In this document: positions 2,531 to 41,312 of the stretch, piece by piece
Numbering within the stretch: the stretch's first letter is position 1
Layout of the letters: each line of letters starts with the position of its first letter
NCBI GenBank assembly: GCA_963722305.1
Contig: CAVRKE010000001.1
Span: 437,549 to 501,548 of the forward strand
Length of the DNA stretch: 64,000 nucleotides
Source: Candidatus Levyibacteriota bacterium
GTDB taxonomy: Bacteria > Patescibacteriota > Microgenomatia > Levybacterales > UBA12049
Direction of reading: 5' to 3'
The notes under the pieces: generated by a model
Told to the model about the DNA's origin: nothing
Databases searched by the model: none
Seen by the model: the letters and a program-made list of their open reading frames with translations, nothing else
Program-made: the position numbers and the translations under genes

Positions 2531-2917
2531 TTATTCATGATGCAATCCCAGTAAGTGCATCAAACCGTGCTCGACCAGCTGGTCTACTTTATCGTCGACC
2601 AACATTTCGTCCCTTACCGCATCATTAATGACTTGCGGATAAGAAAGGACAATGTCACCAAGTCTTAAAAAATTATTCGGCATTTTGAGCGTCTCCCCTT
2701 CGGTTTGCGAAAACGATAAAATGTTTCTGGTTTTATCTTCGCCCTTATATTTTTTAGAGAGTTCGCGCATTTTCCGGTCTCCGACAATGGCCACCGAAAC
2801 TTCAACTGCTCCGCCTATCTCATTTTTATCAAGCACGTTTTTGATAACTTGTTTGATGCGTTTCCGGCTGACTTTATACCTGCTTTCCACAAAAATTAAA
2901 ACCGAAATTCTATCCAT
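2531..2917 (-). CDS. ybeY: rRNA maturation RNase YbeY
   Basis: 128 aa ending with the His triad EHGLMHLLGLHHE (H3xH5xH zinc site), with a matching size. Confidence 0.8.
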   Translation of the reverse strand: MDRISVLIFVESRYKVSRKRIKQVIKNVLDKNEIGGAVEVSVAIVGDRKMRELSKKYKGEDKTRNILSFSQTEGETLKMPNNFLRLGDIVLSYPQVINDAVRDEMLVDDKVDQLVEHGLMHLLGLHHE

Positions 2918-2929
2918 ATGTTATTTTCT

Positions 2930-3115
2930 TTAAGCGTTAGACATCCTCTTGGCTCTTCTTGCATCCTCGGCTTTTTGCTTGCGGGCCAGTGATGGCTTCA
3001 AATAAAACTCCCGCCTTTTTGCCTCCTGAAGAATCCCTTCGGACATTACCTTTCGGGAAAACTTGCGGATAAGTGCATCGTCGCTATCTCCCGGCTGTTT
3101 TTTAACTACTACCAT
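2930..3115 (-). CDS. rpsU: 30S ribosomal protein S21
   Basis: 61 aa basic protein (...IRKFSRKVMSEGILQEAKRREFYLKPSLARKQK...) matching the S21 consensus. Confidence 0.85.
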   Translation of the reverse strand: MVVVKKQPGDSDDALIRKFSRKVMSEGILQEAKRREFYLKPSLARKQKAEDARRAKRMSNA

Positions 3116-3120
3116 AAAAT

Positions 3121-3204
3121 AAAAACACCTCCTTCGATTAATTATTCATTACAAATGATAAATGATTAATCTGTCTTAATTAATCACTAATCATTAATCC
3201 TTAA
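3121..3204. repeat. AT-rich short-period repeat tract (TAATCAC/TAATCAT, 7-mer period)
   Basis: aatgataaatgattaatctgtcttaattaatcactaatcattaatccttaatcattc. A very similar tract lies at 4478..4540. Confidence 0.5.
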
Positions 3205-3531
3205 TCATTCCGTCTGGGATATCGGTCCCATTAAATGGAAATGCACGTGTCTGACAATCTGCGCGCCCCCACCATTTACCGAAACCCGATAGCCTTTTCC
3301 GTCTTCCAGTTTCTTTTCCACAATCATTTCGTTAAGGATGAGTTTAACTTTAGCGGCCAAATCGGAATCGTTAAATTCCAAATAGTCTTCAATGTGTTTT
3401 TTGGGTACCACCAGAAGGTGAATCGGTTTAAATGGACGGATGTCCGGAAAAACCATCACTTCGTCATCTTCGTAAGTAAACTCTTTGGGAATTACTCTGT
3501 CTCTTATTTTGCAAAAAACACAATCCGGCAT
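3205..3531 (-). CDS. HIT-family (histidine triad) nucleotide hydrolase
   Basis: Histidine triad HVHFHLM near the C-terminus; 108 aa. Confidence 0.8.
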   Translation of the reverse strand: MPDCVFCKIRDRVIPKEFTYEDDEVMVFPDIRPFKPIHLLVVPKKHIEDYLEFNDSDLAAKVKLILNEMIVEKKLEDGKGYRVSVNGGGAQIVRHVHFHLMGPISQTE

Positions 3532-3556
3532 AATTTTGAATTATAAATTTTGAATT

Positions 3557-4459
3557 TTAAATTGTTTTAAGTACCTCTATTATAACACTCAACGGCAATT
3601 TGGTCGGCTTCATTTTGGGATTTTTTGGACTGCCGTTTAACAGCATCTTTCGTGAGACATGCAAAAACCAGGTGGCCTGCGGATCCATTTTGCTCAGTTT
3701 TTCCGAGACTAGGCTTAAATCAACACCTTTATCTTCATCGCTTCTATTTGGCCTGGCTTTAATGCGCAAGTAGCCTTTTCGCGGGTCACGTCTGACTACC
3801 ACCACGTATCCCATCATCTGGGCCAGTTTGACGACCGAATCATTGATGCTTTCAATCCCCAAGCCTTTCCCCCATCTGGTCTTAAACTCAATTCCCTTTT
3901 CCTTAATTTCTTTTTCCGCCCAAATTTTATTTTCAAAATCGTGCAACAGCGCATCCAAACACTGGGAAATAAAATCTACATAATACTGGTCGCTGTTTGG
4001 CCTTTGCAATTTTAATCCATCCAAAATATTTACAACTGAGAAATCATGATAGTCTGCCAATGGTTCGCTTCTAAAGATTTCCTGAAAATGGTCAACTGCC
4101 AAAACGTAATTGACCATTCTTTGCAGGGCTTCCAGTCTTTCCGGATTAACCGAAGGCTGATGTGCCATCAGGTCTTTTTTAACAAAATCAAAAGTCAGGG
4201 TGGTTCCGCAAACTTTAATACTTTGGGTTTGATGATGGTCCAAGGGTCCCATTCCGGTATCAACTTGCATATATTCATCTTCCCCGTGTTTTTCAATAGC
4301 AAAATCTTCAGTCTGGCCTTTTGGTAACGGGCCGATGCGCTCTCCCGCAGGAACAAATTTAACTTCGGCATCTTCCCAGCCGGTTAAAAATTTTTTAATC
4401 AGCCAGACAGAGGTGATGGCGTCCATGTCCGGTGATGTATGTGTAACTACGTATCTCAT
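3557..4459 (-). CDS. DHH-family phosphoesterase (NrnA-like nanoRNase/pAp phosphatase)
   Basis: N-terminal HTSPDMDAITS and the GPLDHHQ (DHH) motif; ~300 aa with a DHHA1-like C-terminus. Confidence 0.65.
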   Translation of the reverse strand: MRYVVTHTSPDMDAITSVWLIKKFLTGWEDAEVKFVPAGERIGPLPKGQTEDFAIEKHGEDEYMQVDTGMGPLDHHQTQSIKVCGTTLTFDFVKKDLMAHQPSVNPERLEALQRMVNYVLAVDHFQEIFRSEPLADYHDFSVVNILDGLKLQRPNSDQYYVDFISQCLDALLHDFENKIWAEKEIKEKGIEFKTRWGKGLGIESINDSVVKLAQMMGYVVVVRRDPRKGYLRIKARPNRSDEDKGVDLSLVSEKLSKMDPQATWFLHVSRKMLLNGSPKNPKMKPTKLPLSVIIEVLKTI

Positions 4460-4477
4460 GATTTACGATTTATGATT

Positions 4478-4540
4478 TAAGGTTTATGAAGTTTTCATTA
4501 ATCACTAATCCTTAATCATTAATCCTTTCGCTATTGTACC
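4478..4540. repeat. AT-rich short-period repeat tract (TAATCAC/TAATCCT)
   Basis: ttcattaatcactaatccttaatcattaatcctttcg; same flavour as 3121..3204. Confidence 0.45.
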
Positions 4541-4565
4541 TTTTCTGGGCTTCAAAAAAAAGTGC

Positions 4566-5318
4566 CTAAACCATACTCCAAGATAACTCAAAAACTGCTT
4601 TTTGCGCCGAAGACAGCGGTTCGCTTTGGATTATCACACCAATAATGTCTTTTTTATAATCGAGCATGGCGATTTTGTCGTCATAGATATAAGTCTCCGG
4701 ACTAAAACTCCTATTTTTGGGCAGCAGCCTAGTCTCCCTTAGACTTCCCTTGTCCGTAGATTGCAAAAGTCTACCTTTCTTATTGTTCACTGCCAGAACC
4801 CGAATGAAAATTCCTTTTCTCTTTCTAATTTCGATGAACTGGTTATGAAACTGTTTGGAAAAAAAATTATTTTCCGTTTCCTGGTTTGTCCAAAGCAGTA
4901 TTTCTTTTTTGGCGCTTAAGATATCTTTCTCAACTGCCGAAAGACCATTAATTCCCTCAAAAACCCGCACCTTCGGCCGCACATCCGAAGCGTTGTATAC
5001 TGCCTGTAAATCGGCCAATTTTTCCTTTAATTCAAGCTCCTGCCGCCCGATTGCCCTTTGTTTGGCCGAAAGCATCCTTAAAAGTGTTTTTGGCTCGACT
5101 GTCACTATTTTCTTTTTATAATGATGTAAATCTTCTTCAATCAGTTGTTTTTGCAGTAAGGTTTCCGCTATTAAGTAAGCGGTGGAACGCCTGATCCTGG
5201 CTTTTCTGGCTATTTCGTTAATTGTGGCAGGCCCGATTTTAAAACAAATCAGAAAAAATTTGCTTTCTTTAGCCGATAATCCAAATTGGCTTAATGAATC
5301 TTGTATTAGTTTATCCAT
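4566..5318 (-). CDS. TrmB-family HTH transcriptional regulator
   Basis: N-terminal winged-HTH (LSAKESKFFLICFKIGPATINEIARKARIRRSTAYLIAETL) followed by a coiled coil and a C-terminal domain. This architecture is typical of TrmB-like regulators. Confidence 0.5.
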   Translation of the reverse strand: MDKLIQDSLSQFGLSAKESKFFLICFKIGPATINEIARKARIRRSTAYLIAETLLQKQLIEEDLHHYKKKIVTVEPKTLLRMLSAKQRAIGRQELELKEKLADLQAVYNASDVRPKVRVFEGINGLSAVEKDILSAKKEILLWTNQETENNFFSKQFHNQFIEIRKRKGIFIRVLAVNNKKGRLLQSTDKGSLRETRLLPKNRSFSPETYIYDDKIAMLDYKKDIIGVIIQSEPLSSAQKAVFELSWSMV

Positions 5319-5466
5319 AGTAAGTAGACGTATTATAACCTTAATTTAAGCTCATGTCTAATAAAATTGGAATAATTGTTACTTGTAGCTGACTTAAGCC
5401 TGAACCACTCTTGCTTATTCTCAAGTTTTGACTAATCAAAAACAATCAGCTAAACTTTAACAGCAG

Positions 5467-6360
5467 ATGAAAATTTTAGTTATCACCGGCGGCGATTCTT
5501 CGGAAAGAGAAATTTCTTTGCTTTCGGCAAATGAAGTCAAAAATGCACTGTTAAAAGATAAATATGAAGTTGAACTTTACGACCTACGACAAGGTTACGA
5601 ACCGCTAAAGAAAATAGGCAAAGAATTTGATGTCCTCTTCCCTGTTCTGCACGGAGAGGAAGGCGAAGGTGGAATGCTGCATGAATTTTTGGCTAAGCTG
5701 AACAAGCCCGTTGTTGGCAGTAAAAATTATCAGGGTTTCAGAAATGCCTGGTATAAAATTCCGCTGAAAAAGTTTTGTGATGCAAATAATATTTTGACTC
5801 CGCCATGGCAGCTTATCGAAAAACCGGAAGATATAATTGGTTTCGGCTTTCCCTGTGTTGCCAAAACCTCCAGCGGCGGCTCATCAAGGGAGGTATTTAT
5901 TTTAAAATCCAAAGCGGATTTAGACAAAAACAGTCAGGAAATTTTCCAATATCAAGATTTGTTTGTCGAAAAATATATTCCGGGTACGGAAGTAACGGTT
6001 GGAATTTTCAACGATAAAGCTTTACCGGTGATTGAGATTATTCCGCCAAACGGAGGCTGGTTTGATTATAAAAATAAGTATTCGGGAGAAACACAAGAAA
6101 TTCTTAACGCTCCGTCTTTAAGCGAAGACGTCAGAAGAAAAATTCAGGAAATTGCCTTGCGGTTACACCGTCATTTCGAGCTTGGTTCATATTCCAGAAT
6201 TGATTTTATGGTGGACGAAAACGGTAATCCGTATGTGATGGACATAAACACTATTCCCGGGCTAACCAGCACCAGCTTATTGCCAAAAGAAACCGGCATG
6301 CCTTTTGGGCAGTTCGTTAACCTCTTGGTTAAACTTTCCCTTGACAACAATCCTGATTAA
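5467..6360 (+). CDS. ddl: D-alanine--D-alanine ligase
   Basis: N-terminal KILVITGGDSSEREISLLSA and ATP-grasp core motifs (VLHGEEGEGG, FVEKYIPGTEVTVG, RIDFMVDENGNPYVMDINTIPG). Confidence 0.85.
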   Translation: MKILVITGGDSSEREISLLSANEVKNALLKDKYEVELYDLRQGYEPLKKIGKEFDVLFPVLHGEEGEGGMLHEFLAKLNKPVVGSKNYQGFRNAWYKIPLKKFCDANNILTPPWQLIEKPEDIIGFGFPCVAKTSSGGSSREVFILKSKADLDKNSQEIFQYQDLFVEKYIPGTEVTVGIFNDKALPVIEIIPPNGGWFDYKNKYSGETQEILNAPSLSEDVRRKIQEIALRLHRHFELGSYSRIDFMVDENGNPYVMDINTIPGLTSTSLLPKETGMPFGQFVNLLVKLSLDNNPD

Positions 6361-6386
6361 AGGGATATAATAATTGTAGCTGCCCT

Positions 6387-6785
6387 ATGAATCCTAAAAG
6401 CATTAACGATTTGGACCCAAAACTCAAAGAAACTTATGAAAGAGTCATGGGAACTTCTTTTAGTCCTCGTTCTGCTCCTCCCCAGCGTCCTCTACAAACA
6501 ACCGTTGTCCAGCAGACCGAAACAATTTCTCCCCAACCGTTAACGCCTGCCCAAACAATTCCCCAACAACCGGTTGCCAGCGGTCCGGAGATGGTTGCTT
6601 CTCCACAAGGACCAAAAATGGGAGATCCGTTTACAGAGGTTGAGGCACCTCCGGCGACCATCTTAATCAAAGCCACTAAAACCCAAAAAAAACTGCCCTT
6701 GATGCCAATATTTGTGTTCGTTGGAGGCGTAATTTTCTTTATTGTTTATGCGCTAGTGTGGGCTAAGGTTTTCGGACTTTTTTAG
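6387..6785 (+). CDS. Hypothetical Pro/Gln-rich protein with a C-terminal transmembrane anchor
   Basis: Low-complexity PQ-rich segment, then a hydrophobic tail IFVFVGGVIFFIVYALVWA. No recognisable catalytic motif. Confidence 0.35.
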   Translation: MNPKSINDLDPKLKETYERVMGTSFSPRSAPPQRPLQTTVVQQTETISPQPLTPAQTIPQQPVASGPEMVASPQGPKMGDPFTEVEAPPATILIKATKTQKKLPLMPIFVFVGGVIFFIVYALVWAKVFGLF

Positions 6786-8050
6786 GCTTTGAGCTTTTTT
6801 AAAACTGCATCAAAAGAAAGCATCTCTATCTTATCGCTTGCTCTTTCTTTCCATTCAATCTTATCCCCAGCTTCTTGCCCTGAACCTTGCTGAAGGGTTT
6901 TTGGACTAACCACCAAGCGAACCGGAATGCCGATTAAATCCGCATCGGCAAATTTTTGCCCGGGAGGAGCCTCTCTGTCGTCATACAAAACTTCAATACC
7001 GGCTTTTTCTAAATTTTGATAAATTTCATCCGCTTTTTGATTACTTTGAATTGAAATTAAATGAGCTGAATATGGCGCTACGCTTTTCGGCCAGATGATG
7101 CCCTTGTCGTCATGGAAAAGCTCAACCAGCGTTCCGATCATGCGCGTAATCCCGATGCCGTATGCGCCGAAATGGACCAATTTCCTAGCTCCGTCTTTAT
7201 CGGTGTAATAAACGCCCATTTTCTGTGAATAAACTGTCCCGTACTTAAAGATGTTACCAACCTCAATCGCTTTCGCTTCCTTAACTATGCAATCCTTGCA
7301 ATCAGGGCATTTATCGCCCGCTTTGACAGTGGCAATTTCTTTATTCTCGGCAAACTTACAGTCGCACGAGCTTTTGCAGTCGCAATAGAAAATTGTATCT
7401 TCACCCTGATCGCAAAGCACTTGGAATTCATGGGTATGCGAGTCTGTGAATACTCCGCCGGCTGCTTCAACTATTTTGACTGCAAAACCCAAGCGCCTAA
7501 AGATTTTGATATAAGCATCCGCCACTTCCCAATAATATTTATCTAAACCTTCGGCCGTGGTATGAGCGCTATATAAATCCTTCATTAAAAATTCCCGGCC
7601 CCTTAAAATTCCCGACTTAGCCCGTGGTTCGTCCCTGAATTTGGTGGAAAAATGGTAAACCCTTACCGGCAAATCCTTGTAGCCTGAAATTTTTCTGCGG
7701 ATAATATCTAAAACAATTTCTTCATGCGTAAATGAGAGCGCGTATTCCTTATTATCTATTTTAAACTGGTACATAACACTGCGGGCGCTGTCCCAACGGC
7801 CGGTTTCGTTCCAGATTTCTTTGGGATGCAGCAAAGGCATTAACATTTCGTTGGCGCCGGTTGCATCCATTTCTTCCCTGATAATTTGTTCGATTTTTTC
7901 TTTGACCCTATATCCCAATGGCAAAAGCGTAAATGAACCGGCCATCAGTTTGTCGATGAAACCCGCCTTGATAAGAAGTTTGGCATTAGTGGAAACTTCC
8001 TCTTTTGGGAAATCGCGGACAGTTTTACCGAATAATTTCGAATATCTCAT
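6782..8050 (-). CDS. proS: Proline--tRNA ligase, bacterial-type core without the INS editing domain; carries a Cys-rich insertion
   Basis: LLIKAGFIDKLMAGSFTLLPLGYRV...FTHEEIV...TKFRDEPRAKSGILRGREFLMKD...HTHEFQVL matches ProRS class II motifs. It is only 422 aa, and the insert CDCKSSCDCKFAENKEIATVKAGDKCPDCKDC has four Cys pairs where the editing domain would sit. Confidence 0.85.
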   Translation of the reverse strand: MRYSKLFGKTVRDFPKEEVSTNAKLLIKAGFIDKLMAGSFTLLPLGYRVKEKIEQIIREEMDATGANEMLMPLLHPKEIWNETGRWDSARSVMYQFKIDNKEYALSFTHEEIVLDIIRRKISGYKDLPVRVYHFSTKFRDEPRAKSGILRGREFLMKDLYSAHTTAEGLDKYYWEVADAYIKIFRRLGFAVKIVEAAGGVFTDSHTHEFQVLCDQGEDTIFYCDCKSSCDCKFAENKEIATVKAGDKCPDCKDCIVKEAKAIEVGNIFKYGTVYSQKMGVYYTDKDGARKLVHFGAYGIGITRMIGTLVELFHDDKGIIWPKSVAPYSAHLISIQSNQKADEIYQNLEKAGIEVLYDDREAPPGQKFADADLIGIPVRLVVSPKTLQQGSGQEAGDKIEWKERASDKIEMLSFDAVLKKLKA

Positions 8051-8083
8051 TTCCTAAAGTATAGCATTTTTAAAATACTATAA

Positions 8084-8902
8084 CTAGGAGATAGCTTTGA
8101 CAAATTTTTTAATCAGTTTTGCGTTTCCGGCAATTACCTGCTTTGAAGTAAAATCAACTTTTTCTCCGTTATGATTAGCAATCATTCCTCCGGCTTCCTC
8201 AACAATTAGAAATCCGGCGGCGTTATCCCACGGTTTTAGATTGCGATTTAGATATAAATCCGCTCTCCCTGCCGCAACGTCGCACAGCGCCAATACAGCA
8301 CTCCCCATTAACATAAGCCAGGGAGTTTGCGGCAACTTCAGTATTGTTTCCAAATTAAGTCTCGTTCCTTTTGGATCGTAGTTATTGTCTGTATAAATAG
8401 TTGCTTTTGCAATCTCCGTCTGATTACTGACGTGAATTTTCTTGTCATCAACAAACGCTCCTTTTCCTTTTTCGGCATGAAAAAATTCATTTCTGAAGGG
8501 ATTTAAAATCATGCCCACCTGTAATTCGCCTCTCTCAACATAAGCAAGCGAAATTCCGGAAAAATTTCTTTCATATCTAAAATTGACAGTTCCGTCAATC
8601 GGATCCATTACCCATAAGCGGTCAACCGATAGCAGGTCTTTAGTGCCCGACTTTGTCTCTTCCGACAAAATTGCGTGTCCCGGAAAATTTTCTTGAATTG
8701 TTTTTTTAAGTATTTTTTCGACTTCTAAATCTGTGGCGGTAACAAAATTTAATCTTCCCTCATGTTTAGCAACGATTCCTTTTGTCGGATCGGCATTTCT
8801 GACAACTTTTCCGGCTGCAAATATTGCGTCTTTTATCGGTTGCAAATTCATGTGTTTATTATAACACTCTCTACCCTTTAACCTCGTGGCCGCCGAAGAC
8901 AT
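8084..8902 (-). CDS. suhB: Inositol monophosphatase-family protein (SuhB/IMPase)
   Basis: Metal-binding motifs WVMDPIDGTVNF and ...GSAVLALCDVAAGRADLY. Confidence 0.8.
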   Translation of the reverse strand: MSSAATRLKGRECYNKHMNLQPIKDAIFAAGKVVRNADPTKGIVAKHEGRLNFVTATDLEVEKILKKTIQENFPGHAILSEETKSGTKDLLSVDRLWVMDPIDGTVNFRYERNFSGISLAYVERGELQVGMILNPFRNEFFHAEKGKGAFVDDKKIHVSNQTEIAKATIYTDNNYDPKGTRLNLETILKLPQTPWLMLMGSAVLALCDVAAGRADLYLNRNLKPWDNAAGFLIVEEAGGMIANHNGEKVDFTSKQVIAGNAKLIKKFVKAIS

Positions 8903-17084: not shown

Positions 17085-18392
17085 TTGATGAGAAAAACTC
17101 TTCTTAAATTTTTATTGTCTGCCCTCTTTTTACTGGTCGCCTTCTCATTCTTTTCGCAAAAAACAATTGGCAACGGTAGTGGTAGCTCCGCTAGTGATAA
17201 CACTTGTACCGGGACTAATAATGTTTGCAAACAATACTCTGCTACCGGTTACACCGATTGCACTCTAGATGATAATAATGGCACCTCTAGTCAAGGCGCT
17301 TCTTGCGGTGCTTCCGACGAACAAAATGGCATTCGCTGTTACACCTGCACCGGCTGCGGTAAAGCGCCTGTCACCTGTGGCAACGGACAAACAAATGTTA
17401 ACGGAAAATGTGTGCCAAACTGCCCGACAAGTGGCACAAGCCCCACTGCCTATTGTAGTTATGGCACTCCGACTGACCCCCAAGCAAAAGCCTTAACTCA
17501 ATACACCTGCGATTATCAAGCCGGTGGCAGCAGCAGCATGATATGTTATGGCTGCAATACTGGATATAACCTGGTCAATAACGTCTGCACTAAACCGCCT
17601 GTAAATAATCCCACCCCCACTCCTACTTCTAAGCCCACTCCTACATCTACCCCCACTCCCACTTCTATGCCAACCCCTACTGCTAACCCTACTCCCACCC
17701 CAACCCTTACCCCTACTCCAACCGTCACTCCCACGCCGACTCTTACTCCTACCCCGACTCTTACTCCCACTCCCACCATCCCTCCTACACATACAATTTT
17801 AAATCTGACTGTCGGGCTGGACGGAATTGGCCATGTCGGCGACCGGGCCAACCCGGACTGGACTGCAAAATATAATGCCGCCGGCTCCAACCAAAATCCA
17901 CTCACCAATCCGCGGACTTTTACGATTAACGTTAGTGGTACCAACTACACCACCTCACTAAGTTTTGACCAAACCAACGGCGTTTATACGGGCACCGCTG
18001 ATTTAGGTACGGCTTTTACCACCGGCGATTATATTGTTAAGATTTCCACCGACGGGCATTTGGTAAAAGCAGTCACGGGCTCTGTCAGCGGCGGGCTAAT
18101 GCATATTGTCTCCGGAGTTTCTACTAATACCGCTCCCCAAGTCAACTTGGTTACCGGAGATATTACGGGAGACAACAGTACAACCCCCGACAATAAACTT
18201 GATGTTTTAGATTATAATATTCTTATCAGTTGTATTAAGGACCCTGATATCAATGATTTTGATAATCAGGCAACTTGCGACGAAAATGCAAATTATATTA
18301 AACGATCTGATTTGGAAGACAACGGCGTAGTTGATAAATACGATTATAATTTATTTATCCGGGAATATTCGGAAGTACAAAATGGGGATTGA
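17085..18392 (+). CDS. Secreted Cys-rich protein with a Pro-Thr linker and a C-terminal dockerin-like Ca-binding repeat pair
   Basis: Signal peptide; ~150-aa Cys-rich N-domain; a (PTPT)n linker of ~60 aa; C-terminal [27 protein letters not shown] and [21 protein letters not shown] segments resembling two dockerin repeats. Confidence 0.5.
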
Positions 18393-18533
18393 GCGAAGCC
18401 GAGTCTGACTCGGCGAAAGCAAAATTCTGAGCGAACGAAGTGAGTCGAAGAACTGATATAATGATAAAGGATTAATAATGAATGAATTCTTTAATCTGTA
18501 ATCAAAAATCATTAATCAAAAAAGGACTGCCCT

Positions 18534-19175
18534 ATGAAAGACGAAAAAAGTAATTTGAGCGAAGCGGAGTCCAGCTCAGCTGGACAAAAGCAAACCGCCT
18601 GGATGCCGCAAAAAACCCTGATTTTAATTATTGTGCTGGCAATAATCACCGCTGTACTGCTTGTTTTGGCTTTATACACAAAAATCCCTACCAAAAGCGC
18701 TCATATTGTCACTACCAAAACCCCGGTCGTTGTTGTCCATGCTTATACCACTTTGACTATTGCCCAAGCGGTTGCTTCCAATTCTGCCTATGGGCATACT
18801 TATGCAGCCGACATTAATATTTCCACCAAATCGAACAAAGTAACCGCAGTGCAACTGCAAATAGCTTATAACCCAAATAGTGTCACTATTACCGATATCA
18901 CTGCCGGCTCCTTTTTTAACAATCCCGATATACTGTTTGAAAAAATCGACCCGGAAGCCGGAATCATTACCTATTCACTCGGTGTCGGTCTTGGCCAAAA
19001 ACCGGTTAGCGGCAGCGGAACCGTTGCAACCATTAAGTTTATTCCCATATCCGGCCAAAAATCTGTTGTCCTCAGTGTTTTGCCAACCAGCGAAGTTGCC
19101 GCCCAAGGTGAAGTGAAATCCGTCTTAAAATCAGCTTCCAAAGCAACCCTACAACTGGTCTCCCCTACACAGTAG
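18534..19175 (+). CDS. Membrane-anchored protein with a cohesin-like beta-sandwich domain
   Basis: N-terminal TM helix. The domain TLTIAQAV...AVQLQIAYNPNSVTITDITAGSFF...IDPEAGIITYSLGVGLGQKPVSGSGTVATIKF fits a cohesin-like pattern. Sits directly downstream of the dockerin-like gene. Confidence 0.4.
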   Translation: MKDEKSNLSEAESSSAGQKQTAWMPQKTLILIIVLAIITAVLLVLALYTKIPTKSAHIVTTKTPVVVVHAYTTLTIAQAVASNSAYGHTYAADINISTKSNKVTAVQLQIAYNPNSVTITDITAGSFFNNPDILFEKIDPEAGIITYSLGVGLGQKPVSGSGTVATIKFIPISGQKSVVLSVLPTSEVAAQGEVKSVLKSASKATLQLVSPTQ

Positions 19176-19244: not shown

Positions 19245-19613
19245 TTACTTGAAGTTTTGCCAGTTATTTTTAAGGTTCGAGAGCTTTTTGCCTAATCTAT
19301 TATATCTTTCAATCAATTCGTCAACATATCCCGGCTTTTTGATATAACCTTTGTGTTTCGATAAGAGTAAATGATTAATCATTTCATTGGATTCTCCAAT
19401 GCAATCTCTAATATATCTTTGAAAGTCTTTTATCGATTCTCTTCTTGCATAACCCTCTGCTATTTGTGCAGGTATAGACCTCGAGGCTCTTCTCATCTGA
19501 TCAGACAAAAGGAATTTTTCAGAAGACGGATAGGTCTTAAGAAGTTCTTCTATTTCAAGCGATAATTGAAAAGATTCTTTATAGACTTCAAGATCTAAAA
19601 AACTTGTAATCAC
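19245..19613 (-). CDS. Four-helix-bundle protein (Avd-like / 23S rRNA intervening-sequence protein family)
   Basis: LEVYKESFQLSLEIEELLKTYP...LSDQMRRASRSIPAQIAEGYARRESIKDFQRYIRDCIGESNEMINHL matches the TIGR02436/PF05635 pattern. Confidence 0.7.
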   Translation of the reverse strand: MITSFLDLEVYKESFQLSLEIEELLKTYPSSEKFLLSDQMRRASRSIPAQIAEGYARRESIKDFQRYIRDCIGESNEMINHLLLSKHKGYIKKPGYVDELIERYNRLGKKLSNLKNNWQNFK

Positions 19614-19774: not shown

Positions 19775-20482
19775 ATGCCCGAAATCGCTCAACAAGACAT
19801 CGCTTATCAACCTGCAGCCAAGGGATATGCTTTTTCGAACAATTCCCGCACCCCCATCAGTGAACAACCGCCGAGGAAAAAATCCAATCCGTTTTTACTG
19901 CTATTTTTTGAAATCTTGGGGCTTCTGGCAATATTTGCCATATTTTTGGTGATTCTGAATTTCTTCGGCGTCATTTCCCTTTCCGCGATTTATCCAAAAA
20001 GCTTAGGTTTTCTCCCGCACGTAAACCAATCAACCAACACCAGCTCAAAAACGCAAAACAATCCGACTAACACCAGCAACCAGTATTTTAGTCCTGTTAA
20101 TTTTATAAAACTGCAAAATCAAGCTACGGATAGCAAAATGCAGGCATATCTAGCCTACGCTGTCCGTTTTACCAAACCCAGTCAAAGTGTTACTTCCAAC
20201 GACTACACATCTGCCGGAGTTTTTTCCGGCTACGATAGTAAAACTATCCAGGTTGTTACCAAAGATGGCGTTTTAAATTTAAATTTTGACCAAAATACCC
20301 TTTTCCAAAAATACTCTGCACCACCATCAAACGGCACCGGCGTTATCGCACCGTCTTCTTCTTCATCGACAGATTTCTTTAAAAACGTTGCTTTTGGCAG
20401 TGTCATCCAAGTCTTTTATTCCAAAGCTGATTTGAAAGCAACCCAGGTAAACTATAGTGAGTTAACAAAACCCGTCCTTTAG
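19775..20482 (+). CDS. Single-pass membrane protein with C-terminal 'domain X', shared with the 21907..22830 protein
   Basis: TM helix LLLFFEILGLLAIFAIFLVILNFF. The C-terminal ~90 aa (FSGYDSKTIQVVTKDGVLNLNFDQNTLFQKY...VFYSKADLKATQVNYSELTKPVL) are ~65% identical to the C-terminus of 21907..22830. Confidence 0.45.
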   Translation: MPEIAQQDIAYQPAAKGYAFSNNSRTPISEQPPRKKSNPFLLLFFEILGLLAIFAIFLVILNFFGVISLSAIYPKSLGFLPHVNQSTNTSSKTQNNPTNTSNQYFSPVNFIKLQNQATDSKMQAYLAYAVRFTKPSQSVTSNDYTSAGVFSGYDSKTIQVVTKDGVLNLNFDQNTLFQKYSAPPSNGTGVIAPSSSSSTDFFKNVAFGSVIQVFYSKADLKATQVNYSELTKPVL

Positions 20483-20533
20483 CTTGACTTTAAAAACTAA
20501 AGGGAATAGCATTAGCTTAAAGAAAGGGGCAAA

Positions 20534-21910
20534 ATGATAGCAGAGAGATTAACGATGGAAAAGCCAATAGAAAAAACGACGGGACCAGCACCAAGACCTT
20601 TCGGCCCACCCGAGTTAAGAGTTATGCTTGGTAAAGTGCAAGATAAAGGCACGGTGCCGACGGTCCCGGAATTTGGACAAGAAGCATTACAGAAACCAAA
20701 ATCGGATATGCCGGCGCAAACAATCGGAGAACGACCTTCCTGGGGAGGAAGCGCCATACCAACGGCACAAGAGGCAACAGAAGCATTAGATAGTGTTAAA
20801 GAAGGAACCCTCGCGCACAAGAAAGCAAAAGTCACTTTAGAAACTGCGCAGGCGATTAAGAACTCCGAGATTCCTCTGGATCAATTGAACATGGGAGTAT
20901 CTACCCCAGTTAAAGAAACACCAACTAAAACAGACGATGGTCATGACAATACAGGCGGACGACGCGGACAACATCGAGGAAAATTTGCTATCGCTATGGG
21001 AGCATTAGCAGCAGTGACTGTTGCTGCCTGCAACCGCCTTGGCATTACCTGGCCGCTTGGTCAACCTTCTCCGGCTCCATCAGCAACTCCGGCTGCCGAA
21101 GTCAGCCCGGTTGCAACCGAAACGCCCGGGGCATCGGTTGTAGTAACCGAACCGCCTAGCGCTTCTGCATCAGCCTCAGTCGGACCTTCCCAAACCAAAT
21201 CTCCAACTGCAGAGATAACCACCTCTCCCGAACAACAAAGCGCACTAAAGAAAGCTATTAACGAATGGAATAATAAAGGAACCTATGATAGCAAAGAACC
21301 ACAATTATTTCATAACAGTCCTGCAGACAATTCTGTCCTACATTTAGATTGCTTAGCTTCTGAAGCACAAGTTAATACACAAACAGATCCTTTTTACTCA
21401 GGAGTATTTCTAGGTTATGCTATTGTTGATAATCACGCGATTGTTATCATGGGCGAGAAAGATATTAACCAGAATCCTTATGCCATCGCGCTCAATGGCG
21501 GCAATGTTAAAGATCCTGATGTTTATGTAAAGATTGCTAATAATATAGCCTACTTTAGCAATATTAATGGAAAACAAAAAATCAATTTTTACAATTTTCC
21601 TGAAGCCGCAAGTGAATTCGATAAATACATAGGTCAAACCGTTATCTTTAATCCTAATACTCCTTTAGTAGGACAACCACCAGACTCAAGCTGGGATAAT
21701 TATGTAAACGAAATTAAAGCACAACAAGGTATCTCAAATAAGTTAAATCATTTAGCCGCCTTTGCGGGGCACAATGGTTCCTACACCGATGCTCCATATT
21801 ATCAGGAATTATTGTCCGCCGGCGTAATTATATCTGATGCTTCTAAAATAGCGAGTCTTAAATTACCTCTTCCATATCTGGAAGATATCTATACCAAAAC
21901 TGCCTCATGA
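20534..21910 (+). CDS. Hypothetical membrane/surface protein; paralog of 22882..24129
   Basis: Shares with 22882..24129 the N-terminus MI(A/T)ER..., an internal hydrophobic segment (AACNRLGITWPLG vs AGCQFFGISLPIG) and a P/S/A-rich linker. The upstream 50 bp are also conserved. Confidence 0.45.
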   Translation: MIAERLTMEKPIEKTTGPAPRPFGPPELRVMLGKVQDKGTVPTVPEFGQEALQKPKSDMPAQTIGERPSWGGSAIPTAQEATEALDSVKEGTLAHKKAKVTLETAQAIKNSEIPLDQLNMGVSTPVKETPTKTDDGHDNTGGRRGQHRGKFAIAMGALAAVTVAACNRLGITWPLGQPSPAPSATPAAEVSPVATETPGASVVVTEPPSASASASVGPSQTKSPTAEITTSPEQQSALKKAINEWNNKGTYDSKEPQLFHNSPADNSVLHLDCLASEAQVNTQTDPFYSGVFLGYAIVDNHAIVIMGEKDINQNPYAIALNGGNVKDPDVYVKIANNIAYFSNINGKQKINFYNFPEAASEFDKYIGQTVIFNPNTPLVGQPPDSSWDNYVNEIKAQQGISNKLNHLAAFAGHNGSYTDAPYYQELLSAGVIISDASKIASLKLPLPYLEDIYTKTAS

Positions 21911-22830
21911 AATTTAAAAAAATTATTATTGCGGCAATATTAATAGCTATTGGAGCACTTCTCGTAAACAAACCTGTTAACGTTAACGCTGAAGTCTATG
22001 GCGCGTATTACGGCTGTACTGGAACCACCACCAACACTTATAACGCTTGGGCTTGCCAAATATCTTATCCCTACGATCCAACTACGCCATACGCTATATG
22101 CTTAACTAATAATGTAAGCAACAAACTAACCTGTATTCCAGACCCTGATCATGGCACCGGTGATGCTGATACTGTTAATCTCTGTGGAGCATGCGGCACT
22201 ATTGGTAAAACCTGTAGTCCTCAAACACTAAGTCCTGGATCAGATTGCAATATAGCAAACATAACCCAGTTAAACGAACCGCAATGCGGTGGACATATTA
22301 GCGCCGCACAAATCTGGCAAGGCACAGGTTGTGGAGTCACTTGCTCGGGGTACTATTGGTGCAACTCGGATGGACTCGCCTATGATACTCATTATACAGG
22401 TAGCGGAGGAAGTGGCTCATGCACCAATAATGGAGTACGCGACCCGGCCGGAGACTCTCTTTGTGGCGGTGGCGGTCCCGACACCTGCACGGTTAGTTTC
22501 AGCGGCTTGCCTGCGAATCCAACTGCAGGTCAGGCTTATACTATTTCCATATCCGACGCCGTATTTTCCGGCTATGATGCTCATACAATTCAGGTGGTTA
22601 CATCCGATGGTGTTTTAAATTTAAGTTTTGACCAAACTACCCTTTTCCAAAAATACGCAGCGATCAAACAACCGATTACTAACGGACCTGTTGGCCCAAC
22701 TCCTTACGCATCTTCGCAGGATTTTTTCAATAATGTTTCCTTTGGCAGCACTCTTTTAGTATTCTACTCAAAAACAAACCTTACGGTTAGTCAAGCAAGT
22801 TATATTGAATCCATAAAACCTATCCTTTAA
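21907..22830 (+). CDS. Secreted Cys-rich protein with C-terminal 'domain X'
   Basis: Signal peptide; the Cys-rich domain (...GCGVTCSGYYWCNSDGLAYDTHYTGSGGSGSCTNNGVRDPAGDSLCGG) is homologous to the N-terminus of the 24156..27239 protein; C-terminus is paralogous to 19775..20482. Confidence 0.5.
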   Translation: MKFKKIIIAAILIAIGALLVNKPVNVNAEVYGAYYGCTGTTTNTYNAWACQISYPYDPTTPYAICLTNNVSNKLTCIPDPDHGTGDADTVNLCGACGTIGKTCSPQTLSPGSDCNIANITQLNEPQCGGHISAAQIWQGTGCGVTCSGYYWCNSDGLAYDTHYTGSGGSGSCTNNGVRDPAGDSLCGGGGPDTCTVSFSGLPANPTAGQAYTISISDAVFSGYDAHTIQVVTSDGVLNLSFDQTTLFQKYAAIKQPITNGPVGPTPYASSQDFFNNVSFGSTLLVFYSKTNLTVSQASYIESIKPIL

Positions 22831-22881
22831 CTTGACTTTTGAAGCTCAGAGGAATAGCATAAGGCTTGGAAAGGGGCCAAA

Positions 22882-24129
22882 ATGATAACAGAACGTATGG
22901 AGGGACAAGGAGATCAAGTCAAATTACCGACAATAGGAAAACGGCCATTAGAACGGGTAGTAAGGCCCGTAGGCCAAGCAGCCAAAAAAACAAGGGAAGA
23001 TACAACGGCTGCCTGGGCACCTCCAGTTGCTGAAGCGACCGAAAATGTCGCAAATTATCAACCTGGAACTTTAGGGAGACAAAAAGCCGAAAGTACTCTT
23101 GAAATCAGTAGAATCCTTGAGACTACAGGTATTTCTGCAGGAAGACAACATCCAACGGAGAAAGCACCAACTTCTCAAGCAGTAGTCAAAACAGAAGACG
23201 CAGATGCGACGCGACCAAAGGATCGCCAGCGCGGTTTTAGAAGATTTACTAGAACTGCTGGCCTAGTAGCTACGTCTATAATTGTGGCTGGTTGTCAGTT
23301 TTTTGGTATTTCCCTACCAATAGGAAACTCTTCTGCTCCAAGCTCGGAACCATCCGGAGGAATAGTCGAACCAAGCCCAAGCGGCGGAATGCCCAGTGAA
23401 TCAGCGGGAATTAGTGAGCCACCCAGCGCTTCTCCAAATGCCAGTGCTTCCCAACCAGCGTCGCAAAGTCCCGAAGCTTCAGCATCAGCTGAAACCCAAA
23501 AGCAATTGGAACAAGCAGTCAAAGATTGGTTAAACGGAACCACCAAAACCCCAGAACCCCTTACTATTGGAACCAACAAACTTCCCTTTCATATAGGACA
23601 AGCAGCTACATATATCGAGAATACAAAAAATGACCCCGATGGAATGTGCTCTTATACCGTGGACCTACTTGGAGAACAAACTATCAATAATCATTTAGAA
23701 ATTTATGGAGGCATACAAAATGACGATAATGTAAGACATGTATTAATATTTAATCTGGGTAAAATGCAGGAAAAGTTGGAGCTTGAAACATTTGCTTCAA
23801 ACAATCTAAAAGATAATAGTACTTGGGGCTTTTTTCAACTGCCGGATGCAATAACAGTACTTGCTAAATACAACGGAAAGGCTATACAAATATATGCATC
23901 GATAGGACTCTTTGATACAGCTACTTTGCAAAAGCTCGACTATGATGCCGAGATTAACTCCGGAGTGCCAACTACTGCTGCTATTGCTCAATGGCAAGCA
24001 AATACAGCTTGGAAGGGCTCTAAAGAGACCAAACCACCGGCTAATGTCGATATTGATAAGGTACTTACATCCTTTGACATAACAAAACTATCTCAGTCTA
24101 AAAATATAATGCTTCCAGCGTTACAATAA
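22882..24129 (+). CDS. Hypothetical membrane/surface protein; paralog of 20534..21910
   Basis: See 20534..21910. Same domain order; second member of the tandemly duplicated cassette. Confidence 0.45.
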   Translation: MITERMEGQGDQVKLPTIGKRPLERVVRPVGQAAKKTREDTTAAWAPPVAEATENVANYQPGTLGRQKAESTLEISRILETTGISAGRQHPTEKAPTSQAVVKTEDADATRPKDRQRGFRRFTRTAGLVATSIIVAGCQFFGISLPIGNSSAPSSEPSGGIVEPSPSGGMPSESAGISEPPSASPNASASQPASQSPEASASAETQKQLEQAVKDWLNGTTKTPEPLTIGTNKLPFHIGQAATYIENTKNDPDGMCSYTVDLLGEQTINNHLEIYGGIQNDDNVRHVLIFNLGKMQEKLELETFASNNLKDNSTWGFFQLPDAITVLAKYNGKAIQIYASIGLFDTATLQKLDYDAEINSGVPTTAAIAQWQANTAWKGSKETKPPANVDIDKVLTSFDITKLSQSKNIMLPALQ

Positions 24130-24155: not shown

Positions 24156-27100
24156 ATGCCCGATAAATTGTTACTTAGGGTTTTTTTAACAAGCCTCACT
24201 TTTATTTTATTCTCATTTCTAATTAGCTCTCCTGTAAGTGCTACATACCTCTGCACAGGAACAGCTACCAGCTATTGGAATAGTTACGGAGCCTGTAATG
24301 TAGTTAATGGAATTCCAGCATGTCCAGTTCCTCAACGAATAAACGTATCAAAGGCTTGTACTCAAGATTATACAACCGGAACTTGCGGAGCCTGCTTAGT
24401 CACTCCCATTTACCAAAGTTGCAGCGTTACAGACAATAATTGTGGGGTATTTGATACCCATCTTGCTAATGACCCTGAATGCGGTGCAGGCGCTGGCAAT
24501 TTTTGGATTACCAATGGCTGTAGAGTAACTTGTAGCGGATTATATTGGTGCTCAGGAGGTCTTGCCTACACGACGCATCTTACCGGCAGTGGGGCAAGCG
24601 CAGCCTGTACCAGTACCGGAGTACGTGCTCCGGCTGCCGACCATCTTTGCGGCGGAGCTCCCACTCCTACTCCTATTCCAAGTTGCACAGTTACCTGGAG
24701 TAACTTTCCTTCCGGCAATCTTACTCCCAACGCTGTATATTCAGGAGTTAAAATAAATAAAGTGAACGCTAGTCCCACCTGGAGTCAAGTTAGTGTCTAT
24801 AGAGACAATAGCACGGCCCGCGAAACAGGATTAGTAAACGGCTCTCCTTTTACATTTAGTTTTAATTCCGGAGCCGCCGGCTCTCACACTTTTAAATTTT
24901 ACAACCTTGATGCTTCCGGATACAGCAGTGGAACAGGACCGGATGCAAATGCCGTTTTGTGCAACGGCAGCCAAAGCTTTGTAACGGGGCCTGTGAACGG
25001 AGCGTGCTCTTCGCCCGCGACTCACTATACTTGCGCTACGGGCACTTCGGTGAATAATAAAAAAAATGGTACCACTTCTTACACTTGGACATGTAACGGC
25101 TCGGGCGGCGGCACCAATGCAGCCTGCACCGAAGCGATTGTGAACGGCGTCTGCGGCGCAACCCATTATCTTTGCACTGCCGGCACAAGCGCTAATAATG
25201 TCAGCGGGGCCACTTCTTACACCTGGAATTGCAATAGTCCAAATGGCGGCACCAATGCAGCCTGTACCGAAACGAAAACATACAACGCAACTGTCAACGT
25301 TTACGTTGATTATAATGCTAATGGAGTTCAGGATGCAGGCGAACCGTTATATACCGGCAGCGCAACGATTAACTATAGCGGCGGTACATCGACCGGCAGT
25401 CCGCAAACTTTTGCCGGCGGCACAACCACCATTTCCAATATCCTTGGTGGGCAAGATGAAAGTATCACCTTAAGCGGCCTGCCCGCGGGATGGACAATAA
25501 CTACCGCCAAAACCGCTACGGCTGCAGACCCGGGTGACAACAGCACTGTCACTGTCAATTTCGGCATCCAACCGCCGGCTCCAGATTGTGGTAACCCACC
25601 ACAAGGAACACTTACCGCCACTTCCCCAATTTATTTAGGGGGAGGCTCACAGGGAACTTCCAACCTAAACATTACCTGTGCTATACCACCGGGGGCCAGC
25701 GGCAGTCTTAATTATTCTTGGTCGGTAGTTGAAGACCCGTTGGACCCAACTCCACCGTACCCTTTAAGCAATTTCGGAACTATTAATAACGTTAATGCTG
25801 CCGGCACAACCTATACCTCTCCGGCCATCGGCACAACCATGTATCCGTTTACCGTTGATGCGGCCGTCACCGTTTGTAACCCCGGCGCAAACCCGACTCA
25901 AAATCCGACTGAATGCACCAGCAGGACTGCGCCGATTATTGTCAATCCCCTATTCACGGTTTCCGGTTCCGTCTTTGTTGACACCAACAAAAATAAACTC
26001 AAAGACGCGGGGGAAAGTAATTATGACACCCCGACCTTTTCCATTTCACCCAGCCCCGACCCTCTGGCCGGAACAACTATCACTACTCCCGGCGATGGCA
26101 CTTACACGATTAGTAATCTGCCGGCTTTACCTTCCGGTTCATTCTACACGCTCTCCTATACTAATCCTCCAACTGCGCCCAATGAATACACCGTCATTTA
26201 TCCGGTCGGCACTCCCCCGTCTTTTGCAATTAACACAGGTGTAAACTGCAATGCCACCACTTTTAACGGTGGCGTTTGCTCCAGCGGAAATATCAGTAAC
26301 CTTAATTTTGCAGTCACTAATTCGCACCCTTGGATCCAGACAATCGGCGGGGATATTTACGAAGCGGGTGGAATCAGTAATGCAATTATGCCCAGCGCTA
26401 ATGTTCCCAGCCAAAGCGGTGGACCAAGCGGCAAGTTGTCTGTCCCCAGTTCGGCGGTTAATTATGTTCCTGCCGACAACACCATCCACTCTTCCGGAAT
26501 AGTCTACCAGGGCAGTTCAACTACTAATTTCGGCGGAGGACAGGCAAATGCCAATAATTGGTTGGTTGGCGGAGTTTCCTATCCCGAACCGATTCAATTC
26601 TCGCCGCCAAACACGGTCCTAAGCTCTTATAGCCACATCAGCCAATTGGTTAGTGATGCCGGAATTACGCCGACAAATCTCACTCCTTATTGCAGTGGCG
26701 GTTTGAATAACTGCGATTTGCAAGCCGGAATGCCTGCCGGAGTTTATTCAGTTAACATTCCCGCCAATGGGACGTTAACCCTTAAGGCCACCAAAAATCC
26801 TTTCACTAATGGCGCTTACGTCATTTTGGTTTCCGGAGATGCAACCACCAAAGTGAATATCGACAGTAACATCAGTGTCACAAGCGGCAACACTTTACTC
26901 CTGACCAGCCAAACCGATATTCATGTTGACCCGTCGGTCGGAGTAAGTAGCCCCCTTGATTACACTTCAAATATTGAAGGATTTTATTCAAGCGACAAAA
27001 ACTTCATTATTGATCATGACCTATCCAAAACCTGCACACACGAGGATGAAAAACTCAATATCCAGGGCGCCATTGTTGCCAACGCTGCTTTAAACGGTGG

Positions 27101-27239
27101 CAGTTTCCAAATTAACAGGGACATGTGCGCAGACGATACTTCCCCGGTGGTGACGGTTAAATCAAGGCCTGATTTTGTCTTGAATGCTCCGAAGTTTTAT
27201 CTTCAGACCACGGTTGTCCAAAAAGAAGTAGCACCATAA
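24156..27239 (+). CDS. Large (1027 aa) secreted Cys-rich surface/adhesin-like protein with tandem repeats and SdrD-B/Cna-B-like domains
   Basis: Signal peptide; N-terminal Cys-rich domain related to 21907..22830; two tandem ~42-aa repeats (CxxPATHYTCATGTS...TSYTWTCNGSGGGTNAACTE); two segments (TVNVYVDYNANGVQDAGEPLYTG and VSGSVFVDTNKNKLKDAGESNYD) resembling SdrD-B/Cna-B fold repeats. Confidence 0.6.
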   Translation: MPDKLLLRVFLTSLTFILFSFLISSPVSATYLCTGTATSYWNSYGACNVVNGIPACPVPQRINVSKACTQDYTTGTCGACLVTPIYQSCSVTDNNCGVFDTHLANDPECGAGAGNFWITNGCRVTCSGLYWCSGGLAYTTHLTGSGASAACTSTGVRAPAADHLCGGAPTPTPIPSCTVTWSNFPSGNLTPNAVYSGVKINKVNASPTWSQVSVYRDNSTARETGLVNGSPFTFSFNSGAAGSHTFKFYNLDASGYSSGTGPDANAVLCNGSQSFVTGPVNGACSSPATHYTCATGTSVNNKKNGTTSYTWTCNGSGGGTNAACTEAIVNGVCGATHYLCTAGTSANNVSGATSYTWNCNSPNGGTNAACTETKTYNATVNVYVDYNANGVQDAGEPLYTGSATINYSGGTSTGSPQTFAGGTTTISNILGGQDESITLSGLPAGWTITTAKTATAADPGDNSTVTVNFGIQPPAPDCGNPPQGTLTATSPIYLGGGSQGTSNLNITCAIPPGASGSLNYSWSVVEDPLDPTPPYPLSNFGTINNVNAAGTTYTSPAIGTTMYPFTVDAAVTVCNPGANPTQNPTECTSRTAPIIVNPLFTVSGSVFVDTNKNKLKDAGESNYDTPTFSISPSPDPLAGTTITTPGDGTYTISNLPALPSGSFYTLSYTNPPTAPNEYTVIYPVGTPPSFAINTGVNCNATTFNGGVCSSGNISNLNFAVTNSHPWIQTIGGDIYEAGGISNAIMPSANVPSQSGGPSGKLSVPSSAVNYVPADNTIHSSGIVYQGSSTTNFGGGQANANNWLVGGVSYPEPIQFSPPNTVLSSYSHISQLVSDAGITPTNLTPYCSGGLNNCDLQAGMPAGVYSVNIPANGTLTLKATKNPFTNGAYVILVSGDATTKVNIDSNISVTSGNTLLLTSQTDIHVDPSVGVSSPLDYTSNIEGFYSSDKNFIIDHDLSKTCTHEDEKLNIQGAIVANAALNGGSFQINRDMCADDTSPVVTVKSRPDFVLNAPKFYLQTTVVQKEVAP

Positions 27240-40061: not shown

Positions 40062-40187
40062 AGCCATGCAGCACCTGTGCAATCATCCTTACGGATTTGC
40101 TAATCTTTCAAAAAGCATAAACGATTGCATGTCAAACCCTGGTGAGGTTCTTCGTTTTGTCTCGAATTGAACCACACGCTCCACCGG

Positions 40188-40247
<60 letters not shown>

Positions 40248-41024: not shown

Positions 41025-41067
<43 letters not shown>

Positions 41068-41312
41068 AAAAAAAATTGATGTTAGATTTTCTTTTAGGAA
41101 TTAATCTAACAAAAAATTCCTACCACTTTTTGGTTGAGAAACTTGTTTCGAAACCAACCCTCCAGCAATCGCTCCGTGAGCCGCAGTAGAAATCTACTAA
41201 GGCGAACGGTAAGATGCGGACGGGTTGATTAAAACAGCTTCTAATTACAAAAAGCTCCTTCTCATTCTGTGCTGTATGTGATAACGAATTTTTAAAGTGC
41301 GATTGGCTATTA

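Follow-up and report, generated by a model that had tools for sequence, protein, structure and literature searches.

In the 64-kb window analyzed here (the whole stretch of 64,000 nucleotides (nt) from the genome of a Candidatus Levyibacteriota bacterium, contig CAVRKE010000001.1, positions 437,549 to 501,548), two adjacent genes on the + strand encode a putatively secreted, Cys-rich protein that ends in a dyad of X-module and dockerin (XDoc; protein 1, 17085..18392) and a membrane-anchored protein of 213 amino acids (aa) with a single cohesin (protein 2, 18534..19175). An earlier inspection of the window by sequence alone (hereafter, the original prediction) had proposed that these neighbours are a cognate cohesin-dockerin pair that would tether a protein to the cell surface. 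The pair is conserved in related genomes, which adds weight to the view that the two proteins are cognate and serve tethering. We consider it probable that the two proteins form a minimal, non-cellulosomal cohesin-dockerin system in which the transmembrane-anchored cohesin and the exported XDoc tether a stalk-borne Cys-rich head to the cell envelope.

Domain composition of the two proteins

Sequence profiles and a predicted structure agree in identifying protein 2 as the carrier of a genuine cohesin. When queried against Pfam, it matched Cohesin (PF00963) at an E-value of 7.6e-9 (36.3 bits, cut-off 24.1, profile positions 10-130 of 139), and the same family was found among the precomputed annotations of 25 of 26 cohesin homologues, the 100 % self-match counted. 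Comparison of the cohesin family profile to the PDB retrieved scaffoldin cohesin modules only (best E 2.3e-6), with the type II cohesins of ScaB as the best matches. In the AlphaFold model, residues 72-207 (18747-19154) fold into an all-beta sandwich with a predicted local distance difference test score (pLDDT) mostly above 90, and the top 50 Foldseek matches of this domain in the PDB were all cohesins (best E 4.6e-8, target TM-score 0.73-0.76). An intra-domain alpha-helix, along with beta-flaps inserted in the sandwich, is the hallmark of type II cohesins. Since type I, type II, and non-cellulosomal cohesins scored about equally in the fold search, and since DSSP assigned no alpha-helix within residues 72-207 of the model, we assign this cohesin to no subtype. 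The domain is preceded by a single strongly hydrophobic helix (residues 29-47, mean Kyte-Doolittle value of 3.5), modelled as a transmembrane helix at residues 26-48 (18609-18677), from which it is separated by a linker of about 23 residues. The description of this gene in the original prediction, namely a membrane-anchored sandwich resembling a cohesin, was borne out, and the sequence strings that were quoted in its support lie in the beta domain.

Protein 1 comprises 435 codons when counted from TTG 17085, and its stop codon is the TGA at 18390-18392. The true start is probably ATG 17088, immediately after this TTG, from which an independent assembly also calls the gene (434 aa). A total of 5,854 bp around the pair, the insertion in dockerin loop 1 (see below) included, are identical in a second, independent assembly. 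Residues 1-29 (17085..17171) read as a signal peptide or signal anchor: the hydrophobicity of the protein peaks in the 19-mer at residues 5-23, and the closest relatives share the N-terminus ...SFFSQKS(L/F)A. We infer that protein 1 is exported and that its signal peptide is cleaved. By composition, this is followed by a Cys-rich region with 15 Cys and 20 Gly (residues 30-170, 17172..17594) and by a Pro/Thr-rich linker (residues 171-234, 17595..17786) in which 24 of the 64 residues are Pro and 25 are Thr. The C-terminal half holds an X-module-like beta-sandwich (residues 235-351, 17787..18137), delimited by alignment, model, and fold match, and the dockerin module (residues 352-435, 18138..18389), delimited by family homology and predicted fold. 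The architecture proposed originally, with a signal peptide, a Cys-rich domain, a Pro/Thr linker, and duplicated loop segments, is present in full, and the loop-helix segments flagged at that time correspond to residues 359-384 and 409-428. More distant relatives start differently. Dockerin proteins at loci L001 (941-3310 and 3606-5822), L008, L012, L015, L017, L018, L022, L023, and L025 (L numbers denote the fetched loci) begin with a transmembrane helix and then a conserved Gln-rich motif, e.g., ...PLTV(I/L)VSQQQQE(I/T)RQRAA, which may be a lineage-specific sorting or processing signal. In protein 1 and the relatives closest to it, a classical signal peptide takes this position.

The dockerin of protein 1 owes its identification to family membership and fold, not to its own Pfam score. 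No match to Dockerin_1 (PF00404) was obtained with the full-length protein at E <= 1, and when the 83-residue tail was queried separately, Dockerin_1 was the sole family listed, with an E-value of 0.27 (11.9 bits, profile positions 7-54 of 57). The post-linker half of the protein retrieved 31 homologues, with E-values from 4e-64 to 6e-11, that aligned across the entire segment. Among the 32 aligned family members, 16 matched Dockerin_1 at E <= 0.01 (best 4.3e-9), and full-length relatives reach 36.1 and 30.6 bits on this family, for which the cut-off is 22.9. A wider search was made with a dockerin-only profile against a set of 5.8 billion proteins. All of its matches were fragments of less than 150 aa; the search confirms the module and is silent on the diversity of cargo. 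A precomputed PF00404 match was present in 66 of the 120 proteins among the matches listed, and no further dockerin protein from the window's own contig was retrieved from this set. Finally, dockerins accounted for 17 of the 18 matches of the family profile in the PDB, with loop-to-loop alignments (best E 0.0036).

The family consensus, LVTGDIxxDNxLNILDYNILLSC ... C ... DLxDNGxVNxFDYNLFLRE, has two EF-hand-like loops, and an invariant D-Y-N helix comes after each of them. Between the two repeats sits an invariant pair of Cys residues (383 and 398 in protein 1) that may form a disulfide. The second loop of protein 1 (18309-18344) has the canonical pattern (D1, x3, N5, G6, D9, D12) and runs into its DYN-helix as YNLFIREY. 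The first (18159-18212) reads DITGD[NSTTPD]NKLDVLD, i.e., D-I-T-G-D and N-K-L-D-V-L-D split by the 6-residue insert NSTTPD, and is likewise followed by a DYN-helix (YNILISCI). Folding of the module and its binding to a cohesin would both depend on Ca2+.

According to the alignment, a beta-sandwich lies directly N-terminal of the dockerin in nearly all family members. We modelled the C-terminal 201 residues of protein 1 (mean pLDDT 76.8, predicted template modelling score 0.74). Strands of the beta-sandwich were placed at model positions 3-123, mostly with pLDDT 81-94 and with a disordered loop at 14-34, and helices at 140-149, 161-165/168-174, and 184-197 (pLDDT about 62-86). The sole three Foldseek matches of this model in the PDB at E <= 0.001 were chains made of an X-module and a type II dockerin: the CipA XDoc in 3kcp_A (E 8.5e-6) and 2b59_B (E 2e-5), and the ScaA XDoc in 4wi0_B (E 7e-5). 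These alignments span 193-205 columns and therefore cover both domains, with a root-mean-square deviation of 6-7 Å for a predicted model. At the level of sequence profiles, the X-module yielded no significant match to the solved structures of the PDB, the best one being the X region of 4wi0_B (E 0.11), and family members displayed scattered weak Pfam matches to the generic Ig-like families CarboxypepD_reg, PEGA, and FlgD_ig. In the light of the model, the C-terminus of protein 1 is best described as an X-dockerin dyad nearest to the type II XDocs, and sequence and model together identify it as a real dockerin that is a weak member of its family.

The type I dockerin named in the original prediction has to be given up, since a beta-sandwich precedes the dockerin, the fold matches XDoc dyads, and the nearest of these are of type II. 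The more general resemblance to a dockerin stood as far as the family and the fold are concerned, and did not stand for the window protein alone. The checks that had been suggested gave a corresponding picture: of the two profile searches, that for Cohesin passed and that for Dockerin_1 remained sub-threshold on the window protein, and both predicted structures matched the expected folds (cohesins for protein 2, XDoc dyads for protein 1). Only the low score that the window dockerin obtained with Pfam would favour reading both resemblances as chance or as a compositional artefact, with neither module true. This is extremely improbable, and is effectively refuted by the hidden Markov model (HMM), profile, and fold results for the cohesin and by the family HMM, profile, and fold results for the dockerin.

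Conservation of the gene pair

HMMs built from the cohesin and dockerin families were used to scan six-frame translations of the window and of the fetched loci. Exactly one dockerin and one cohesin were detected in the 64-kb window. Among 13 cohesin-centred loci, ten have a dockerin-ending open reading frame (ORF) directly upstream on the same strand (L001, L004, and 8 of the 11 informative loci from a scan of species-representative genomes), and at L001 two dockerin-ending proteins are encoded upstream of the cohesin. All ten are Levybacteria-like. When loci were centred on dockerins, a cohesin was found immediately downstream in four of seven (L006, L007, L008, and L011). The gene order dockerin-cohesin is kept down to 34-40 % cohesin identity, and a functional pair is the simplest explanation of its retention at 10 of 13 loci. 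The neighbourhood of the pair in the window, downstream of rpsB-tsf-frr, is common to L004, L006, and L011. The original prediction had regarded such a pair as unusual in a genome it supposed to be reduced. Within the lineage this is not so, as the pair recurs across Levybacteria-like genomes; the supposition of a reduced genome is reasonable. The relatives with names are Candidatus Levybacteria / Levyibacteriota and "Patescibacteria group", and a contig of 608,320 bp is on record for the cohesin protein.

Some of the loci deserve comment for their annotation. Uninterrupted ORFs for Cys-rich X-dockerin proteins at L004 (2746-4263, 506 codons) and L011 (3807-5981, 725 codons) are split by the public gene calls, and domain surveys using those calls would thus under-count X-dockerin proteins. 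Among the records of species-representative metagenome-assembled genomes, four are titled 'uncultured Gammaproteobacteria bacterium' (L015, L016, L021, and L022) and one 'Candidatus Sulfotelmatobacter sp.' (L020), yet they encode the Levybacteria-type cohesin, in L015, L016, and L022 with the upstream X-dockerin gene as well. These titles are probably taxonomic mislabels or derive from contaminated bins.

In the window, the two genes are separated by 141 bp (18393..18533) and are presumably co-transcribed. In this spacer (fold z-score of -2.5), the stop codon of protein 1 is followed by a perfect 7-bp hairpin at 18398-18414 that lacks a T-run. The motif AAGGA, which resembles a ribosome-binding site, lies about 8 nt ahead of ATG 18534. 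A promoter/terminator scan found no terminator-like site on the + strand of the spacer; promoter and terminator counts were no better than those of shuffled sequence, and the scan thus gives no positive evidence of an operon. The 10-mer TGAGCGAAGC occurs at 18390, 18556, 38524, and 49498 and at five further sites of the window with one mismatch. This count of 9 (at most one mismatch) compares with 3.15 expected and was reached in none of 100 shuffles. The start of the cohesin gene lies between two of the copies.

Tethering of protein 1 and its alternatives

In the arrangement that we favour, protein 2 would enter the cytoplasmic membrane by its single N-terminal helix, N-in and C-out, and display one cohesin outside the cell at the end of its linker of about 23 residues. 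Protein 1 would be exported via the Sec pathway, and its XDoc would fold around Ca2+ and plug into the cohesin of protein 2. The Pro/Thr stalk of 64 residues would then push the disulfide-rich head away from the membrane, and this head is probably an adhesin or another surface-exposed binding module.

The closest functional analogue of the pair is found in Ruminococcus flavefaciens, where ScaE, an anchor with a single cohesin, binds the XDoc of CttA, an adhesin without enzymatic activity that is encoded in the same sca cluster (PMC5301203, PMC4266597). The cohesin of protein 2 would most likely tether the X-dockerin protein to the cell in a similar way. In both cases, a single-cohesin protein anchored in the envelope shares a gene cluster with a non-enzymatic partner that ends in an XDoc, carries a head at its N-terminus (binding modules in CttA), and has insertions in its dockerin, and in both cases the proposed role is attachment and not catalysis (PMC5301203, PMC4266597). 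On the other hand, ScaE is attached covalently through sortase/LPXTG, whereas the anchor in the window is an N-terminal transmembrane helix, and CttA has carbohydrate-binding modules and occurs beside a full cellulosome, whereas the cargo in the window is a Cys-rich module without scaffoldin or glycoside hydrolase. In addition, the fold search ranks the type II XDocs of Clostridium thermocellum and Acetivibrio cellulolyticus first, and not CttA. These best structural matches, the XDocs of CipA (with SdbA/OlpB, C. thermocellum) and ScaA (with ScaB, A. cellulolyticus), belong to systems that also serve anchoring to the cell, but there the anchors are of the SLH type and hold an enzyme-loaded, multi-cohesin scaffoldin, and the window cohesin model differs from the type II modules in lacking the intra-domain alpha-helix.

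Non-cellulosomal cohesins of Archaeoglobus fulgidus (2xdh) and Clostridium perfringens (2vo8/2jh2) were also among the fold matches of the window cohesin. Cohesins and dockerins outside cellulosomes are widespread, and the proteins that bear them are mostly non-catalytic (PMC13487519, citing an earlier survey); the pair in the window falls into this category. The modules in the window differ from these in forming a conserved adjacent pair, in the membrane anchoring of the cohesin, in the X-module of the dockerin, and in their host from the candidate phyla radiation (CPR), and the invariant Cys pair of the dockerin is a further difference from the known systems compared. The same plug-and-socket modules build cellulosomes and amylosomes. 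A cellulosome was considered and rejected: the 64-kb window contains neither a scaffoldin with at least two cohesins nor a dockerin-fused glycoside hydrolase, and the pair therefore falls outside the published definition of a cellulosome (PMC13487519).

Several observations weigh against the tethering proposed here, and those concerning the dockerin are the following. Its 11.9 bits are below the Dockerin_1 cut-off of 22.9. The NSTTPD insertion in loop 1 is unique to protein 1 among the 32 aligned sequences and was modelled at lower confidence (pLDDT about 62), and position 5 of the same loop is Pro or Val in close relatives. Loop 1 may thus be degenerate, or degenerating, in the subclade of the window protein. 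Carried to its end, this line of argument would make the window dockerin a degenerate module, either a Ca-binding or a purely structural cap that does not bind a cohesin, and its adjacency to the cohesin gene a relic. The sub-threshold score and the unique 6-residue insertion are compatible with such a fate, as is the Thr found at position 3 of loop 1 instead of Asp or Asn. We nevertheless regard it as very unlikely, for all 13 invariant columns of the dockerin alignment are kept (by construction), among them those of the DYN helices, of the Cys pair, and of the ligands in loop 2. Furthermore, the second loop has the canonical pattern, two assemblies give the same uninterrupted ORF, and the XDocs of CttA and ScaB also have insertions and still bind (PMC5301203).

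A second group of such observations concerns the pairing. At 3 of the 13 cohesin loci (L020, L021, and L024) there is no dockerin neighbour and the gene context is another one, and 3 of the 7 dockerin loci (L010, L012, and L013) are without a cohesin. The latter represent a separate conserved locus, flanked by ArgRS and an M16 peptidase, that encodes 1-3 dockerin proteins. The two genes are thus often but not always neighbours, and more than one ligand may use the cohesin. It is unlikely, in our judgement, that both modules are genuine and yet the neighbours are not each other's main partners, with the cohesin acting as a general anchor for ligands encoded elsewhere in the genome (e.g., paralogues at the ArgRS-M16 locus) or with the XDoc of protein 1 binding the cohesin of another protein. 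The relatives do have more dockerin proteins than cohesins (L001, L008, and L012 each carry 2-3 dockerin genes), and the conserved ArgRS-M16 locus has dockerin proteins without any cohesin. L008 encodes a cohesin and an XDoc in one polypeptide (4689-8651; proteins with both modules are also encoded at L009), like adaptor scaffoldins, and ScaE binds many dockerins (PMC5301203). These points have to be set against the order dockerin-cohesin at 10 of the 13 cohesin-centred loci, although a general anchor could well count the neighbour among its ligands.

The remaining observations of this kind concern the head and the position of the anchor. The Cys-rich head matched no Pfam or NCBIfam family, and its function is not recognisable. 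An exhaustive HMMER search of 1.84 billion representative proteins retrieved only three relatives. One is an orthologue that shares the domain layout, and the others are a 3,265-aa repeat protein and a low-complexity protein; none of the three had a Pfam family. The segment ahead of the XDoc is strongly variable among relatives of protein 1, whose heads include other Cys-rich modules, with the recurrent mini-motif C..GG.C...C...CC, as well as SLH domains (L001, E 2.1e-22), an fn3-like domain (L011), and CBM96 (L012). Searches of Pfam and NCBIfam detected no glycoside hydrolase or carbohydrate-binding module family in the cargo of protein 1, and no glycoside hydrolase was seen among the cargo of the relatives' dockerin proteins. 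The SLH and XDoc protein of L001 is encoded at 3594-5819 and the CBM96 and dockerin protein of L012 at 2653-6949. At L023 (2424-5815), an S8 subtilisin that bears a canonical dockerin is encoded after two tandem genes for transmembrane-anchored cohesins.

As the cohesin is only about 23 residues away from the membrane, it may lie under the wall rather than at the outer surface. This short distance would suit a structural system in which the membrane cohesin and the X-dockerin proteins act as staples between the cytoplasmic membrane and the wall or S-layer, with the Cys-rich protein as a component of the envelope. Such a system would also explain the protein encoded directly upstream of the cohesin in L001-L003, which joins SLH domains (E 2.1e-22) to the same XDoc and in this way would bridge a wall polymer and the membrane anchor, and it would agree with the location of the pair within a conserved cluster of other predicted surface proteins. 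We consider it unlikely for protein 1, which has no SLH or other wall-binding domain according to Pfam and NCBIfam. The long Pro/Thr stalk of this protein, and a Cys-rich head that is variable and evolves fast, speak more for exposure and ligand binding than for a structural role. Tethering of an exposed head through the neighbouring cohesin is the arrangement that we retain as probable.

Genomic surroundings and significance

The gene next to that of the cohesin encodes, on the - strand, a 23S-rRNA-IVS / four-helix-bundle protein (19245-19613, Pfam E 2.7e-27). Genes of this family also adjoin the cohesin gene in L001 (6667-7023), L004 (5198-5560), and L011 (3313-3666 and 6857-7105), with an orientation and copy number that vary among the relatives. 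Tandem duplicated gene pairs follow downstream of the cohesin on the + strand (19775-24129). The ORFs at 19775-20482 and 21907-22830 have in common a C-terminal domain of about 90 aa (59 % identity, E 2e-29), and those at 20534-21910 and 22882-24129 are paralogues (26 % identity over 345 aa, E 4e-24). None of these ORFs matched a Pfam family, and all of them look like membrane or surface proteins. The next gene (24156-27239, + strand) encodes a protein of 1,027 aa with a sub-threshold SdrD_B-like repeat (E 6.5e-6, 26.8 bits versus a cut-off of 29.7), and large SdrD_B proteins also follow the cohesin cluster in L001, L006, and L008. This suggests a conserved island of surface-protein genes downstream of rpsB-tsf-frr.

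Elsewhere in the window, the 16S rRNA gene (38823-41073, - strand) measures 2,251 nt against the 1,533 nt of the Rfam model, with about 700 nt inserted, and harbours an ORF of 186 aa for a LAGLIDADG homing endonuclease (39395-39955, - strand, Pfam E 9.2e-14). Insertions of this kind with a LAGLIDADG ORF are typical of CPR bacteria, and the gene thus supports the placement of this genome in the CPR.

The pair introduces no new mechanism: the mechanism of cohesin-dockerin recognition is already known, and public databases hold automatic Pfam matches on homologues of these proteins. In a literature search of incomplete coverage, we found no description of a cohesin-dockerin pair in the CPR, Patescibacteria, Microgenomates, or Levybacteria. 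The pair widens the range known for cohesin-dockerin systems to reduced genomes without cellulolytic machinery. A compact membrane-anchored cohesin and a dockerin variant that would contain a disulfide could also serve protein-display engineering.

To our knowledge, little has been learned of how CPR bacteria (Patescibacteria) construct their surface and attach to hosts, and most proteins of that surface lack annotation. The linked cohesin and X-dockerin genes provide a concrete anchor-and-ligand hypothesis for one lineage of these bacteria, and the two small domains are open to expression and assay even if the organism is not in culture. More speculatively, and as a possibility that we put forward with considerable doubt, the X-dockerin family and the transmembrane-anchored single cohesin could be a general, non-covalent mount for the surface proteins of Levybacteria-like CPR bacteria, with the fast-evolving Cys-rich heads as the adhesins by which these ultra-small cells hold on to a host or substrate. 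If this is true, the heads mounted in this way would include Cys-rich modules, SLH domains, proteases, carbohydrate-binding modules, and further cohesins, and the cohesin-dockerin toolkit would have been repurposed as the attachment apparatus of an episymbiont, and not as a scaffold for enzymes.

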